From IMG/VR virus record IMGVR_UViG_2737471848_000024: a stretch of DNA of 5,447 nucleotides. The stretch is one strand, 5' to 3'. Below the pieces are notes generated by a model, which was not told the origin of the DNA, made no database searches, and worked only from the letters and a program-made list of their open reading frames with translations. The position numbers and the translations under genes are program-made. Origin of the DNA: a virus (Duplodnaviria > Heunggongvirae > Uroviricota > Caudoviricetes). Below are positions 1-5,447 of this stretch, piece after piece; position 1 is the stretch's first letter, and each line of letters opens with the position of its first letter.

Positions 1-138
1 GAAGTGGAACTGGCCACACTCACGTGGGTGGACTGGTATAACAATCGACGATTGCTGGAAAGGCTGGGCCATACTCCTCCGGCAGAAGCAGAAAAAGCTT
101 ATTATGCTTCCATCGGAAACGATGATCTGGCAGCCTGA
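1..138 (+). mobile_element. 3' end of a transposase ORF (rve/DDE integrase-core C-terminus, IS3-family-like); 5' part lies outside the window
   Basis: Frame 1 is open from the window edge to TGA at 136-138 and translates to EVELATLTWVDWYNNRRLLERLGHTPPAEAEKAYYASIGNDDLAA. The W-x-D-W-Y-N-x-R-R-L ... P-P-x-E-x-E-x-x-Y-Y tail is typical of the C-terminus of IS3-family OrfB transposases. The exact IS and its terminal inverted repeat (expected within about 139-185) could not be identified by eye. Confidence 0.55.
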
Positions 139-185
139 GTTCACAGATAAAACACTCTCCAGGAAACCCGGGGCGGTTCACGATA

Positions 186-374
186 ATGAAAACGTTATTA
201 CCAAACGTTAATACGTCTGAAGGTTGTTTTGAAATTGGTGTCACTATCAGTAACCCTGTATTTACTGAAGATGCCATTAACAAGAGAAAACACGAACGGG
301 AGTTATTAAATAAAATATGCATTCTTTCAATGCTGGCCCGTTTACGTCCGATACAAAAAGGATGCTGGCAATGA
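186..374 (+). CDS. dicB: Cell-division inhibitor DicB (62 aa), prophage-encoded MinC-targeting protein
   Basis: The 62-aa translation MKTLLPNVNTSEGCFEIGVTISNPVFTEDAINKRKHERELLNKICILSMLARLRPIQKGCWQ matches, from memory, E. coli K-12 Qin DicB (also 62 aa, MKTLLPNVNTSEGCFEIGVTISNPVFTEDAINKRK...) with a few substitutions near the C-terminus. Identification rests on recall, not a search. Confidence 0.75.
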   Translation: MKTLLPNVNTSEGCFEIGVTISNPVFTEDAINKRKHERELLNKICILSMLARLRPIQKGCWQ

Positions 375-562
375 ATACAGCATTTGCACTTGTTCTGACA
401 GTTTTTCTTGTTTCCGGAGAGCCAGTTGATATTGCAGTCAGTGTTCACAGGACAATGCAGGAGTGTATGACTGCAGCAACCGAACAGAAAATTCCCGGTA
501 ACTGTTACCCGGTCGATAAAGTTATTCACCAGGATAATATCGAAATCCCGGCAGGTCTTTAA
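371..562 (+). CDS. ydfD: YdfD-like small prophage protein (63 aa) with an N-terminal hydrophobic segment; Qin YdfD is described as a lysis protein
   Basis: ATG at 371 overlaps the dicB stop (ATGA, 371-374) and is preceded by AAGGA at 358-362 with 8-nt spacing. The translation MNTAFALVLTVFLVSGEPVD...NCYPVDKVIHQDNIEIPAGL has a hydrophobic N-terminus and two Cys. Length (63 aa) and position directly after dicB match K-12 ydfD. The ORF track start at 317 has no comparable RBS. Confidence 0.6.
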   Translation: MNTAFALVLTVFLVSGEPVDIAVSVHRTMQECMTAATEQKIPGNCYPVDKVIHQDNIEIPAGL

Positions 563-655
563 AACAGTTCCGTAATAAATATCCGGTTTCATTCTTATAT
601 GCCAGCAATGGCAGGGATTTGTTCATCCTTAAATCTGTCATGAGGTTAAAACAAA

Positions 656-3127
656 ATGAGTAAAGTCTTTATTTGCGCCGCCATTCCTGACGAACTGGCA
701 ACAAGGGAAGAAGGCGCTGTGGCTGTAGCCACAGCTATTGAAGCTGGCGACGAACGCCGTGCTCGAGCAAAATTTCACTGGCAATTCCTGGAACATTATC
801 CGGCTGCTCAGGACTGCGCTTATAAATTTATTATCTGCGAGGATAAACCTGGCATACCCCGCCCTGCCCTCGATTCATGGGATGCTGAATATATGCAGGA
901 AAACCGCTGGGATGAGGATTCTGCTTCTTTTGTCCCGGTTGAGACTGAATCCGATCTGATGAACGTCACTTTTGACAAGCTGGCCCCTGAAGTACAGAAC
1001 GCTCTCATGGTTAAGTTCGACACATGTGAAAACATCACCGTTGATATGGTTATTAGCGCACAGGAATTGTTGCAGGAAGACATGGCAACATTCAACGGAC
1101 ATATCGTTGAAGCGTTGATGAAAATGCCAGAAGTTAACGCCATGTATCCGGAGCTTAAGCTGCATGCCATCGGGTGGGTTAAGCATAAATGTAAGCCTGG
1201 TGCCAAATGGCCCGAAATTCAGGCAGAGATGCGCATCTGGAAAAAACGTCGCGAAGGTGAACGCAAGGAAACCGGAAAATACACGTCTGTTGTTGATCTC
1301 GCCCGCGCCAGAGTCAATCAACAGCACACTGAAAATTCAACAGGAAAAATCAGCCTGGTCATTGCTGCCATTCATCGCGAATACAAACAGACATGGAAAA
1401 CACTGGATGACGAACTGGCCTACGCTCTCTGGCCTGGTGATGTGGATGCCGGAAACATTGACGGCAGCATCCATCGCTGGGCAAAAAATGAAGTTATCGA
1501 CAACGACCGCGAAGACTGGAAGCGTATCTCGGCATCAATGCGCAAACAGCCTGATGCCCTTCGCTACGACCGCCAGACTATTTTTGGCCTTGTCCGTGAA
1601 CGTCCGATCGACATTCACAAAGACCCTGTGGCACTGAACAAATACATTACTGAATACCTGACTACAAAGGGCGTGTTTGAAGATGAAGGAACAAATCAGA
1701 GCGCAACTGACACTCTCTCGTCGCCAGTACCAGAAACTGATGCAGTGGAAACGGCAATTCCGGACAACGAAAAAACCGAATGCAAAGTGGAAGTCGAACC
1801 ATCTGTAGAGCGTGAGGGGCCGTTCTACTTCCTCTTCACCGACAAGGATGGCGAAAAATACGGTCGCGCAAACAAACTTTCTGGTCTGGATAAGGCACTG
1901 GCTGCCGGGGCTACTGAAATCACGAAAGAAGAATATTTCGCCCGCAAAAACGGTACATACTCAGGTTCACAACAAAATACTGGTGCATCTGACACGACCG
2001 CACAACCAGAGCCGGTAAAAGTTACCGCTGACGAAGTAAACAAAATTATGCAGGCAGCCAATATCAGCCAGCCTGACGCCGATAAGTTGCTTGCTGCCTC
2101 TCGCGGAGAATTTGTTGCAGGGATTAGCGACCCGAATGATCCGAAATGGGTTAAGGGGATCCAGACCCGCGATTCTGTAAACCAGAACCAGCATGAATCG
2201 GAACGGAACTACCAAAAAGCGGAACAAAACAGCCCAAATGCGTTACAAAACGAGCCAGAAACGAAACAGCCTGAACCAGTGGCGCAACAGGAAGTGGAAA
2301 AAGTCTGCACCGCCTGCGGTCAGACCGGCGGCGGCAACTGCCCTGATTGTGGCGCGGTGATGGGCGACGCAACATACCAGGAAACATTCGATGAAGAGTA
2401 TCAGGTTGAAGTTCAGGAAGATGATCCGGAGAAAATGGAAGGCGCTGAACATCCACACAAGGAGAACACTGGCGGCAATCAGCATCACGATAGCGATAAT
2501 GAAACTGGCGAGACGGCAGATCACTCAATTAAGGTGAACGGTCATCAAGAAATCACATCCACCAGCAGGACGTGTGACCATCTAATGATCGACCTTGAAA
2601 CCATGGGAAAAAATCCTGATGCCCCGATCATCTCAATAGGTGCAATATTTTTCGATCCGCAAACCGGAGATATGGGACCGGAATTTAGTAAGACTATCGA
2701 TCTGGAAACTGCTGGCGGAGTCATTGATCGGGACACCATTAAATGGTGGCTTAAGCAATCACGCGAAGCGCAATCTGCCATTATGACCGATGAAATCCAG
2801 TTAGATGATGCACTGTTACAATTGCGGGAATTTATCGACGAAAACTCCGGTGAATTTTTTGTTCAGGTCTGGGGAAATGGAGCCAACTTCGACAACACGA
2901 TTTTGCGCCGTTCATACGAACGGCAGGGGATCCCCTGCCCGTGGCGTTACTACAACGATCGCGATGTACGCACAATCGTTGAGCTGGGGAAAGCCATAGA
3001 CTTCGATGCCAGAACGGCTATTCCATTCGAAGGTGAGCGCCATAATGCACTTGATGACGCCCGTTACCAGGCAAAATACGTTTCAGCTATCTGGCAAAAA
3101 CTGATCCCGAGTCAGGCTGATTTTTAA
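656..3127 (+). CDS. Prophage exonuclease, 823 aa (annotated in enterobacterial prophages as exodeoxyribonuclease VIII-like / YdfE-like), with a C-terminal DEDDh 3'-5' exonuclease domain
   Basis: Long ORF with GAGG 10 nt upstream of the ATG. The C-terminal ~185 aa carries the three DnaQ-like motifs: MIDLETMG (Asp 2591-2593, Glu 2597-2599), WGNGANFD (Asp 2891-2893) and HNALDDARY (His 3041-3043, Asp 3056-3058). The middle ~290 aa are acidic and Gln/Asn/Thr-rich, and contain a DKLLAASRGEFVAGISDPNDPKWVKGIQTRD patch that I recall as shared with RecE-family proteins (uncertain). It occupies the position of ydfE in K-12 Qin. Confidence 0.85.
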   Translation: MSKVFICAAIPDELATREEGAVAVATAIEAGDERRARAKFHWQFLEHYPAAQDCAYKFIICEDKPGIPRPALDSWDAEYMQENRWDEDSASFVPVETESDLMNVTFDKLAPEVQNALMVKFDTCENITVDMVISAQELLQEDMATFNGHIVEALMKMPEVNAMYPELKLHAIGWVKHKCKPGAKWPEIQAEMRIWKKRREGERKETGKYTSVVDLARARVNQQHTENSTGKISLVIAAIHREYKQTWKTLDDELAYALWPGDVDAGNIDGSIHRWAKNEVIDNDREDWKRISASMRKQPDALRYDRQTIFGLVRERPIDIHKDPVALNKYITEYLTTKGVFEDEGTNQSATDTLSSPVPETDAVETAIPDNEKTECKVEVEPSVEREGPFYFLFTDKDGEKYGRANKLSGLDKALAAGATEITKEEYFARKNGTYSGSQQNTGASDTTAQPEPVKVTADEVNKIMQAANISQPDADKLLAASRGEFVAGISDPNDPKWVKGIQTRDSVNQNQHESERNYQKAEQNSPNALQNEPETKQPEPVAQQEVEKVCTACGQTGGGNCPDCGAVMGDATYQETFDEEYQVEVQEDDPEKMEGAEHPHKENTGGNQHHDSDNETGETADHSIKVNGHQEITSTSRTCDHLMIDLETMGKNPDAPIISIGAIFFDPQTGDMGPEFSKTIDLETAGGVIDRDTIKWWLKQSREAQSAIMTDEIQLDDALLQLREFIDENSGEFFVQVWGNGANFDNTILRRSYERQGIPCPWRYYNDRDVRTIVELGKAIDFDARTAIPFEGERHNALDDARYQAKYVSAIWQKLIPSQADF

Positions 3128-3140
3128 TGTTCAACCCTGA

Positions 3141-3170
3141 TCGCCGCTAACCACATATAGTTAGCGGCGG
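3141..3170 (+). other. Perfect inverted repeat (stem-loop) in the exo-xis intergenic region; function unknown
   Basis: CGCCGCTAA (3142-3150) pairs with TTAGCGGCG (3161-3169), with a possible extra T:G pair at 3141/3170 and a 10-nt loop CCACATATAG. No U-tract follows, so it is not a canonical intrinsic terminator. Confidence 0.35.
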
Positions 3171-3185
3171 TTATGAGATATAGCT

Positions 3186-3389
3186 ATGAGCAGCTTATTT
3201 TTAACCGAAGATGAATTGCTAATATTAACGGGCTGCAAATATGCAAGCCACCAGCGAAAATGGTTAATGGAAAACGGGCTTCCGTTCTATACCAATCGTA
3301 GTGGCAAACCGATTGTCAGCCGGGATCTATTTACCTGCAATAAAACTTTACCACCACGCGAGGTAGAGCCGAATTTTGGTGCGATCTGA
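3186..3389 (+). CDS. Small excisionase-like protein (putative recombination directionality factor), 67 aa
   Basis: Small ORF directly upstream of the integrase; its stop TGA (3387-3389) overlaps the int ATG (3389-3391) by 1 nt, suggesting translational coupling. Size and position are typical of xis in lambdoid int-xis modules. The call is mainly positional; the sequence (MSSLFLTEDELLILTGCKYASHQRKWLMENGLPFY...) resembles DUF4224-type small proteins from memory only. Confidence 0.55.
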   Translation: MSSLFLTEDELLILTGCKYASHQRKWLMENGLPFYTNRSGKPIVSRDLFTCNKTLPPREVEPNFGAI

Positions 3390-4414
3390 TGGGAAGACGA
3401 AGGAAAAATCCTGAACACGAAAAATTACCTCCAAATGTATACCCAAATAAATATAGTTATGTATGGAAACCAACATCCAGAGAATCTGTAACACTAACCG
3501 CCATCAAGGATGGTTTAGCTGCTTTATGGAAAAAGTATGAGGAAACTGTAAATAATCGCGATCGTGCAATGACATTCGGTCGCTTGTGGGAAAAATTCCT
3601 CGCCAGCGCCTGTTACAGTGACCTTAGCCCAAGAACACAAAAAGATTATCTGCAACATCAAAAAAAGTTGCTTGCCGTATTCGGTAAGGTACCAGCGGAT
3701 TCCATAAAACCAGAACACATCCGTCGATACATGGACAAAAGAGGGGAACAGAGCAAAACGCAAGCCAACCATGAAAAAAGCAGTATGTCCCGCGTTTACA
3801 GTTGGGGATATGAGCGAGGGTACGTGAAGGCTAACCCATGTGCAGGTGTAAGTAAATTCAAGGCCAAAAACCGCGAACGATATGTAACCGACAAAGAATA
3901 CCAGGCAGTATTAAGCGTTGCACCTCTTCCTGTTTTTATCGCAATGGAAATTGCCTATCTGTGTGCAGCGAGGGTTTCCGATGTGTTATCGCTGAAATGG
4001 GAGCAGATTGGAAACGACGGGATCTTTATCCAGCAAGGGAAAACAGGGAAAAAACAGATAAAAGCATGGAGTCCACGATTACAGGCGGCGATCGAAAAAG
4101 CAAAACAGTTACCAACATCCGCCTATGTAATCAGCAATCAATACGGCAACCGATATATGTACAAAGGCTTTAACGAAATGTGGGTAGAAGCAAGAAATCG
4201 CGCAGGCAAAATTTCAGGTATTTTAACCGACTTCACCTTTCATGATCTGAAGGCGAAAGGAATTTCAGACTATGAAGGAAGCAGTCGGGATAAGCAACTT
4301 TTCTCTGGTCACAAAACCGAGGGGCAAGTGCTAATCTATGACAGGAAGGTTAAAGTTTCACCGACACTTGATGTCCCGTTACCTGAAAATATTCCAAGAA
4401 AATATTCCAAGTAA
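3389..4414 (+). CDS. int: Lambda-family tyrosine integrase (site-specific recombinase), 341 aa
   Basis: N-terminus MGRRRKNPEHEKLPPNVYPN parallels the lambda Int arm-binding N-terminus MGRRRSHERRDLPPNLYIR. Catalytic region: box I Arg in AARVSDVLSLKW; box II TFHDLKAKG (lambda TFHELRSL); GHKTEGQVLIYDR (lambda GHKSDTMASQYRDDR) with the nucleophilic Tyr. It ends 52 bp before the tRNA 3' end. Confidence 0.9.
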   Translation: MGRRRKNPEHEKLPPNVYPNKYSYVWKPTSRESVTLTAIKDGLAALWKKYEETVNNRDRAMTFGRLWEKFLASACYSDLSPRTQKDYLQHQKKLLAVFGKVPADSIKPEHIRRYMDKRGEQSKTQANHEKSSMSRVYSWGYERGYVKANPCAGVSKFKAKNRERYVTDKEYQAVLSVAPLPVFIAMEIAYLCAARVSDVLSLKWEQIGNDGIFIQQGKTGKKQIKAWSPRLQAAIEKAKQLPTSAYVISNQYGNRYMYKGFNEMWVEARNRAGKISGILTDFTFHDLKAKGISDYEGSSRDKQLFSGHKTEGQVLIYDRKVKVSPTLDVPLPENIPRKYSK

Positions 4415-4421
4415 TTCCAAG
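4386..4421. repeat. Tandem direct repeats: 2 x 13 bp AAAATATTCCAAG plus a third partial copy TAATTCCAAG, spanning the int stop codon
   Basis: Read directly: 4386-4398 and 4399-4411 are identical; 4412-4421 repeats the ATTCCAAG core. The copies are read in different codon phases (NIPR vs KYSK), so the repetition is at the DNA level. Confidence 0.8.
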
Positions 4422-4466
4422 TGTGATTTTTGTCACTGACTTAATGATGTATAAGTGATTGAATTT

Positions 4467-4556
4467 TGGCGGAGAGAGGGGGATTTGAACCCCCGGTGGA
4501 GTTGCCCCCACTCCGGTTTTCGAGACCGGTCCGTTCAGCCGCTCCGGCATCTCTCC
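4467..4556 (-). tRNA. serU: tRNA-Ser (anticodon CGA), 90 nt including CCA, with a long variable arm
   Basis: Reverse complement reads GGAGAGATGCCGGAGCGGCTGAACGGACCGGTCTCGAAAACCGGAGTGGGGGCAACTCCACCGGGGGTTCAAATCCCCCTCTCTCCGCCA. It has a 7-bp acceptor stem, anticodon loop CUCGAAA (anticodon CGA) and a T-arm GGTTCAAATCC. It closely resembles E. coli serU as recalled, and mtfA is adjacent as in K-12. Confidence 0.9.
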
Positions 4557-4649
4557 GTTCAGATGGTTGCCATGATGCCAGGAAATTTGGCATTTTAACA
4601 GTCCCTGTCCGTGCAATTTTGTTCAAGTGACGAGTTTGCGAGCAAAACG

Positions 4650-5447
4650 ATGATTAAGTGGCCCTGGAAAGTACAAGAATCAGCACATCAAACTGCCCTT
4701 CCCTGGCAGGAAGCACTATCGATCCCCCTTTTAACGTGTCTGACAGAACAGGAACAAAGCAAATTGGTCGCTCTTGCCGAACGTTTTTTACAGCAAAAAC
4801 GGCTTGTTCCTTTACAGGGCTTTGAGCTGAATTCATTAAGAAGCTGCCGGATAGCACTTCTATTTTGCCTGCCCGTTCTGGAGTTAGGACTGGAATGGCT
4901 GGATGGTTTTCATGAAGTCTTAATTTATCCTGCGCCATTTGTGGTCGATGATGAATGGGAAGACGATATCGGTCTGGTGCATAACCAACGTATTGTTCAG
5001 TCAGGTCAGAGCTGGCAGCAAGGGCCTATCGTTTTGAACTGGTTGGATATACAAGATTCTTTTGATGCTTCTGGTTTTAACCTGATTATTCATGAAGTCG
5101 CTCATAAGCTGGACACCCGTAACGGCGATCGCGCCAGCGGAGTTCCCTTTATTTCGTTGCGTGAGGTTGCTGGCTGGGAACACGATCTTCATGCTGCAAT
5201 GAACAACATTCAGGAAGAAATCGAATTAGTTGGTGAGAATGCGGCGAGCATTGATGCTTATGCTGCCAGTGATCCTGCTGAATGTTTTGCCGTACTTTCT
5301 GAATATTTCTTTAGCGCCCCAGAACTTTTTGCTCCTCGTTTCCCTTCATTGTGGCAACGTTTCTGTCAATTTTATCAACAAGATCCTTTGCAGAGACTGC
5401 ATCACGCTAATGATACAGACTCGTTTTCGGCGACGAATGTTCATTAA
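4650..5447 (+). CDS. mtfA: MtfA (Mlc titration factor A / zinc-dependent peptidase), 265 aa
   Basis: Translation from ATG 4650 ([28 protein letters not shown]...) matches E. coli MtfA/YeeI as recalled, including the HEVAH zinc-binding motif ([10 protein letters not shown]), and gives the K-12 length of 265 aa. The ORF track start at 4611 adds 13 residues not present in the recalled protein. Confidence 0.9.

Follow-up and report, generated by a model that had tools for sequence, protein, structure and literature searches.

A probable IS629/IS1203-type insertion between dicF and dicB in a lambdoid prophage of Escherichia coli

In the stretch of DNA analysed here (5447 nt, called the window), dicB is preceded by the right end of an insertion sequence (IS). 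Comparison with a nearly identical genome and with IS-free relatives indicates that this element has very probably transposed into the spacer between dicF and dicB, with duplication of the trinucleotide CGA. Its right end is 5 nt away from the dicB ATG, and it reads in the direction of the operon. The host unit is a dicBF-type early-left operon of a lambdoid prophage other than Qin. The event itself is an ordinary, recent and strain-specific IS629-type insertion, and the public genome record already lists it as an IS3-family transposase. As its likeliest consequence we infer an attenuation of DicB and YdfD by polarity, with residual expression by read-through.

The window corresponds to NZ_AP042519.1, the genome of E. 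coli OkiPb01684, an isolate from bovine faeces in Okinawa. Over the 5447 nt a single mismatch is present, which is synonymous and located at position 78. The locus of this genome that bears the same junction is referred to as L001. Two prophages without the IS served as references, namely those of the O39:NM strain F8704-2 (L002) and of strain B19374 (L006). The latter occupies the same tRNA-Ser/mtfA site as the window and is 99.8% identical over positions 181-5447. The features of the window, together with three other insertions discussed below, are listed in Table 1.

Table 1. Features of the window and IS insertions near dicB in other E. coli genomes. Coordinates refer to the window unless a locus is named.
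Feature	Coordinates	Strand	Evidence or remarks
orfB 3' end (IS3 family, probably IS629/IS1203-type)	1-138	+	last 45 codons and TGA stop
IS non-coding right end	139-180	+	IRR ~156-180, ending ...CCCGGGGCGGTTCA
Target-site duplication CGA, right copy	181-183	.	left copy beyond the window, L001 4868-4870
dicB, 62 aa, intact	186-374	+	Pfam DicB match; WP_001358566.1
ydfD (DUF1482 lysis protein)	371-562	+	Pfam DUF1482, 92 bits; start overlaps dicB stop (ATGA)
Exonuclease gene, 823 aa, RecE/exodeoxyribonuclease VIII-like, partial match only	656-3127	+	NCBIfam PRK09709, 285 bits, under cut-off
DUF4224 small gene, xis position	3186-3389	+	ORF and annotation
Tyrosine integrase, 341 aa	3389-4414	+	13-bp tandem duplication 4385-4410; PGAP: frameshifted
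tRNA-Ser(CGA), attachment-site tRNA	4467-4556	-	Rfam scan
mtfA, chromosomal flank	4650-5447	+	annotation, L001 10650-11447
IS629, O157:H7 strain 1130	L003 1871-3180		dicF-dicB spacer; ATT duplication, 92 nt from ATG
IS629, E110019	L004 1871-3180		between ydfC and dicF; GGG duplication
IS600, O103-type strain 2015C-3163	L009 ~201-1464		dicF-dicB, opposite orientation; CCA duplication, 41 nt from ATG

At the left edge of the window, frame 1 is open up to a TGA stop at 136-138, and the 45 residues encoded there show a weak match to the C-terminal last third of Pfam rve_3 (E = 0.0039). The complete IS copy is found in L001, where it spans 4871-6180 and thus exactly 1310 bp, which is the length of IS629. 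The element has TG...CA ends (TGAACCGCCCCGGG...CCCGGGGCGGTTCA), and 23 of the first 25 positions agree between its left and right terminal repeats (IRL and IRR), the right one of which lies inside the window. We take these terminal sequences to be those of IS629. Within the IS, orfA (L001 4925-5251, 108 aa, HTH_Tnp_1) is overlapped by orfB (5248-6138, 296 aa); all of orfA, and all of orfB but its last 45 codons and stop, are located beyond the window. In the full-length orfB the Pfam domains HTH_21, rve (E = 5.7e-27) and rve_3 are present, and the NCBIfam IS3 equivalog NF033516 scores 310 bits against a cut-off of 160. Furthermore, Rfam recognises the frameshift pseudoknot ALIL in the L001 copy with 120.2 bits, and this two-ORF layout with its pseudoknot corresponds to the programmed -1 frameshift between orfA and orfB that is used as a criterion for the IS3 family.

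These Pfam and NCBIfam results, as well as the thousands of matching IS copies described below, rule out a native phage gene as the upstream ORF. An earlier note on this DNA had read the ORF as an IS transposase and not as a phage gene, running in the same direction as dicB; both points are confirmed, the two reading frames lying on the + strand. The element is 95.0% identical to the copy in O157:H7 strain 1130, which carries the PGAP label IS1203 family. Since a divergence of 4-5% has been reported between IS629 sub-types (PMC3271280), this identity fits a difference between sub-types. Taken as a whole, the sequence features indicate that positions 1-180 of the window are the right end of an IS3-family element, very probably a complete 1310-bp copy of the IS629/IS1203 type that is probably still active.

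The boundary between IS and prophage was located by a megablast search of positions 1-700 against 5426 complete E. coli genomes. Here, positions 1-180 match thousands of IS copies, while homologues without the IS align from position 181 onward only. This assigns 42 of the 47 spacer bases (139-180) to the IS and leaves 181-185 to the prophage. The distance of 47 bp that had been given between the transposase stop and dicB is correct as the length of the TGA-to-ATG spacer (139-185, 47 nt); as a position of the insertion it is not, since 139-180 is part of the IS and the element ends 5 nt from the ATG, these five bases being the CGA duplication followed by TA.

Extending the comparison upstream in L001, a check proposed in the earlier note, yielded the 1310-bp IS, the terminal repeats with 23 of 25 matching positions and the target duplication, with CGA on both sides. 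The junction on the left-hand side of the IS in L001 reads ...TTGAGGGCGCGA/TGAACC (the slash marks the IS boundary). The right-hand junction reads GGTTCA/CGATAATGAAAACG in L001 and in the window. The empty site in L002 and L006 reads GAGGGCGCGATAATG with a single CGA, and over the longer stretch TTGAGGGCGCGATAATGAAAACG of these uninterrupted sister prophages both flanks are identical to those of L001. CGA is thus present at both IS ends in L001, the right copy alone falling within the window, and its length is within the 3-4 bp described for IS629 target duplications (PMC3271280). The presence of CGA on both sides together with flanks equal to the empty sites argues for a simple transposition.

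For OkiPb01684, a deletion or recombination mediated by the IS at the junction was considered and rejected, the duplication being intact and the flanks matching the empty sites. The window begins within the IS, so that its own left junction is taken from a genome (L001) that differs at one base. One could therefore imagine that in the genome from which the window itself derives, the junction arose by IS-mediated recombination or by an adjacent deletion that removed dicF and the upstream genes. The left IS end is outside the window; in other genomes, IS629 copies close to dicB lack the immunity region on their upstream side, as at L005, where ydaT abuts the IS; and matching duplications were reported at just 21 of 47 IS629 sites (PMC3271280). 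However, the sole genome bearing the junction, with 1 mismatch in 5447 nt, shows CGA at either end of the IS, and its upstream operon is uninterrupted and includes dicF; this makes such a rearrangement extremely improbable and leaves simple transposition as the preferred reading.

The dicBF-type operon upstream of the IS is seen in L001. In the window as a whole, an Rfam scan with E values up to 1 detected no DicF, the tRNA being the one real match. This agrees with the earlier statement that 139-185 does not hold dicF, 139-180 being the IS end. This does not mean a loss of dicF, however: in the junction-bearing genome an intact, full-length DicF (RF00039, 76.7 bits) is located at L001 4647-4698, 172 nt upstream of the left end of the IS. 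At the empty site of L002, DicF is found at 3780-3831, 174 nt upstream of dicB. What the IS does, as had been proposed, is to separate dicB from dicF and from the rest of the operon. The gene order in L001 and in the IS-free relatives is minus-strand ydaT-like and HTH genes, racR, a DUF1391 (ydfA-like) gene, ydfB, ydfC and dicF, followed by the IS (in L001 only), dicB, ydfD, the 823-aa exonuclease gene, the DUF4224 gene, int, tRNA-Ser(CGA) and mtfA. Between racR and the DUF1391 gene, the pattern TTGACA-17-TATAGT is present at L001 3561-3589, a consensus-like pattern match only. For Qin, one polycistronic dicBF transcript from dicBp upstream of ydfA has been described, and no other promoter was found (PMC10448788).

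Downstream of the IS, the DicB protein is unchanged. It matches Pfam PF05358 over 62 of 62 positions with 126.9 bits, and the same accession (WP_001358566.1) is shared by L001, L002 and L006. In K-12, DicB acts through MinC to inhibit cell division as well as ManYZ (PMC6832061). A second, truncated dicB has been annotated by PGAP in L001 ('partial DicB, missing C-terminus', 4768-4872). This candidate was rejected, as the stretch is ordinary dicF-dicB spacer and is unchanged in L002. Starting from a GTG, it can be read without a stop in the frame of dicB, also in the IS-free genomes, and the call is probably an artefact that stems from reference DicB proteins with an extended N-terminus. The IS insertion accounts for this spurious pseudogene of the public record. 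A weak terminator-like hairpin, TGCCAGCAATGGCA and then GGGATTTGTT, was noted downstream of ydfD and ahead of the exonuclease gene, at window positions 600-613 (+), again a match at consensus level only.

With respect to known elements, the IS resembles the IS629/IS1203/IS3411 group, which is abundant in EHEC and Shigella, in its length of 1310 bp, its imperfect TG...CA repeats, the -1 frameshift between orfA and orfB, the 3-bp duplication and the location in a lambdoid prophage. No structural difference from this group was seen; it is the site that is strain-specific, being occupied in 1 of 5426 genomes. The location is a common one, as 62% of IS629 copies were in prophages when four O157:H7 genomes were examined (PMC3271280).

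The operon was likewise compared with dicBF of Qin (PMC10448788, PMC6832061). Both have the same order of repressor, promoter, ydfA-like gene, ydfB, ydfC, dicF, dicB, ydfD, exo and int; in the IS-free relatives ~174 nt separate dicF from the downstream dicB, and the 62-aa DicB shows a full Pfam match. In contrast to Qin, the prophage has a RacR-type repressor and YdaS/YdaT-like genes instead of DicA/DicC, it is located at tRNA-Ser(CGA)/mtfA, its sister genome has complete structural genes, and its operon is interrupted by the IS, with dicF on one side and dicB on the other. Qin, which the earlier note had used as the frame, is therefore not the appropriate one: the host prophage is lambdoid, measures ~47 kb, has a RacR-type repressor and is located at tRNA-Ser(CGA)/mtfA. 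The tRNA gene is presumably serU of the K-12 map. Opposite to it, at window positions 4470-4521 (+), Rfam gives a match to 'Plastid-psbl-rps4 3'UTR' with 38.6 bits, compared to a gathering threshold of 68; this is almost certainly the T-arm of the tRNA read in reverse and has no meaning.

Among 5426 complete E. coli genomes, 1 carries precisely this junction. This rarity, together with a DicB protein identical to that of the IS-free relatives, indicates that the insertion is recent. Ends of IS629 or IS600 near dicB were found in ~25 genomes; their positions are scattered, and either orientation is seen. Using chimeric queries, IS629 ends at most 850 bp upstream of this dicB type were detected in 8 genomes in the same orientation and in 8 in the opposite one, and IS600 ends upstream of this dicB type in 9 genomes. 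These raw genome counts from chimeric queries, with their scattered positions, give no sign of a hotspot, of selection or of an orientation bias. The IS600 junction with the CCA duplication has an end-to-end match in 4 genomes. At L005, an IS629 is present whose upstream immunity region appears to have been deleted, ydaT adjoining the IS. The insertions at L003 (IS629) and L009 (IS600) are, like that of the window, simple insertions with 3-bp duplications in the dicF-dicB spacer. They differ in that they are independent events at other positions and in other prophages or lineages, the IS600 being reversed, and in that they leave dicB its native Shine-Dalgarno sequence, which the window insertion removes. 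The IS629 copy between ydfC and dicF in E110019 (L004) likewise goes back to an event of its own. A literature search pairing IS629 with dicB found nothing.

It had also been proposed that the IS points to a rearranged or defective prophage. A clean IS insertion alone says nothing in this respect, and the features of the prophage that do deviate are unrelated to the IS. At the 3' end of int, a perfect 13-bp tandem duplication (gaaaatattccaa twice, at 4385-4397 and 4398-4410) shifts the frame, so that the protein ends in ...PENIPRKYSK; otherwise it would, by reading of the sequence, end in ...PENIPSNSKCDFCH with a stop at 4439. The residues altered lie past the presumed catalytic Tyr. PGAP calls int 'frameshifted' over the same 1051-bp span in L001, in the IS-free L006 and in a 96%-identical O103-type prophage (L009), and because of this common call the change is considered old and widespread.

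In the OkiPb01684 prophage itself, the complement of replication, lysis, head and tail genes is complete. The far end of this prophage adjoins tRNA-Ser(UGA) and hyaABCDEF (L007, that is NZ_AP042519.1 1443000-1490000, at 35607-38228), and the cargo found there is a partial EspV together with an EspF-repeat protein. In B19374, the sister prophage has nleB2, nleC, nleH and nleF as cargo and ends at yodB, the expected neighbour (L008 41313-42772). This suggests that in OkiPb01684 two lambdoid prophages have undergone a large inversion or an exchange, without relation to the IS, at sites that we take to be serT and serU of the K-12 map. The sister prophage of F8704-2 has lost its xis-int end to IS activity; here, a truncated excisionase gene and an IS66-type tnpA precede an IS3-family element, at whose 5' end an isrC match is located (Rfam, 150 bits, L002 7878-8000).

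Turning to expression, the insertion increases the distance between the 3' end of dicF and the dicB ATG from 174 nt to 1487 nt, and the native Shine-Dalgarno sequence GAGGG (-12 to -8) is displaced by 1.3 kb. A loss of the ribosome-binding site, which had been expected at first, is not borne out by the duplex calculation. The sequence GGGGCGG of the right IS end (-16 to -10) pairs with the 16S 3' end at a predicted -7.2 kcal/mol, compared to -6.1 kcal/mol for the native site, and the predicted accessibility around the AUG is 0.36 at the junction and 0.35 in the native context. As this anti-Shine-Dalgarno pairing is no weaker than the native one, a read-through transcript may still be translated. 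In silico scans of the + strand, covering the IS and the junction, found neither a sigma-70-like outward promoter nor an intrinsic terminator-like site.

On this basis, the IS would place 1.3 kb of largely untranslated RNA between the operon promoter and dicB. DicF, being encoded upstream of the IS, is expected to be unaffected and would still be made upon derepression of the prophage. The levels of DicB and of YdfD, which is translationally coupled to it, would by contrast be expected to fall sharply under these conditions, and transcription from the operon promoter into exo, xis and int would be attenuated. Without frameshifting orfB would mostly remain untranslated, which makes a Rho-dependent polarity plausible; any polarity would hinge on Rho, since the IS has no terminator-like site. 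The remaining dicB expression may come from read-through of the weak transposase transcript of the IS. A classical parallel is given by the polar insertions of IS1 and IS2 in gal and lac, where the IS likewise lies between the promoter and the distal genes and a loss of expression is expected. In contrast to these, the IS described here runs in the direction of the operon and lacks a recognisable intrinsic terminator, and its polarity is predicted.

The opposite outcome, that the IS activates dicB by read-out from the transposase promoter or from a hybrid promoter at its right end and thereby causes a low, constitutive and repressor-independent expression, is unlikely. The common orientation of dicB and the IS would allow it, and IS3-family elements have an outward -35 in the IRR, IS3 and IS2 being reported as mobile promoters. 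For a hybrid promoter, however, no sigma-70-like site is available on the + strand near the junction: the IS ends just 5 nt from the ATG, and the lone -10-like hexamer, GATAAT at 182-187, overlaps the start codon and has no acceptable -35 at 16-18 nt upstream. Read-out from inside the IS would meet no terminator-like site on the + strand and could make use of the anti-Shine-Dalgarno match in the IRR end (-7.2 kcal/mol), which is at a usable distance from the ATG. Against this stands that transposase promoters of the IS3 family are weak and that an orfB which is largely untranslated without frameshifting favours Rho termination.

More improbable still is a further reading, in which the operon has been rewired. 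Here, DicF would stay under control of the repressor, and dicB would receive only a weak, constitutive read-out transcription out of the IS, with translation relying on the G-rich IS end. The resulting low and non-toxic level of DicB would block ManYZ-dependent phages. The independent hits of IS629 and IS600 in the 174-nt spacer would then reflect selection to uncouple DicB from DicF and would not be neutral. Attenuation of DicB and YdfD by polarity remains the preferred reading.

Under this reading, the prophage copy is predicted to still produce DicF and to produce little DicB or YdfD when derepressed. Furthermore, less early-left transcription into exo, xis and int would, as a prediction, help to fix the prophage in place. 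Past this one strain the insertion matters little, and it represents another case of the IS629-driven micro-diversification of EHEC/EPEC-type prophages.
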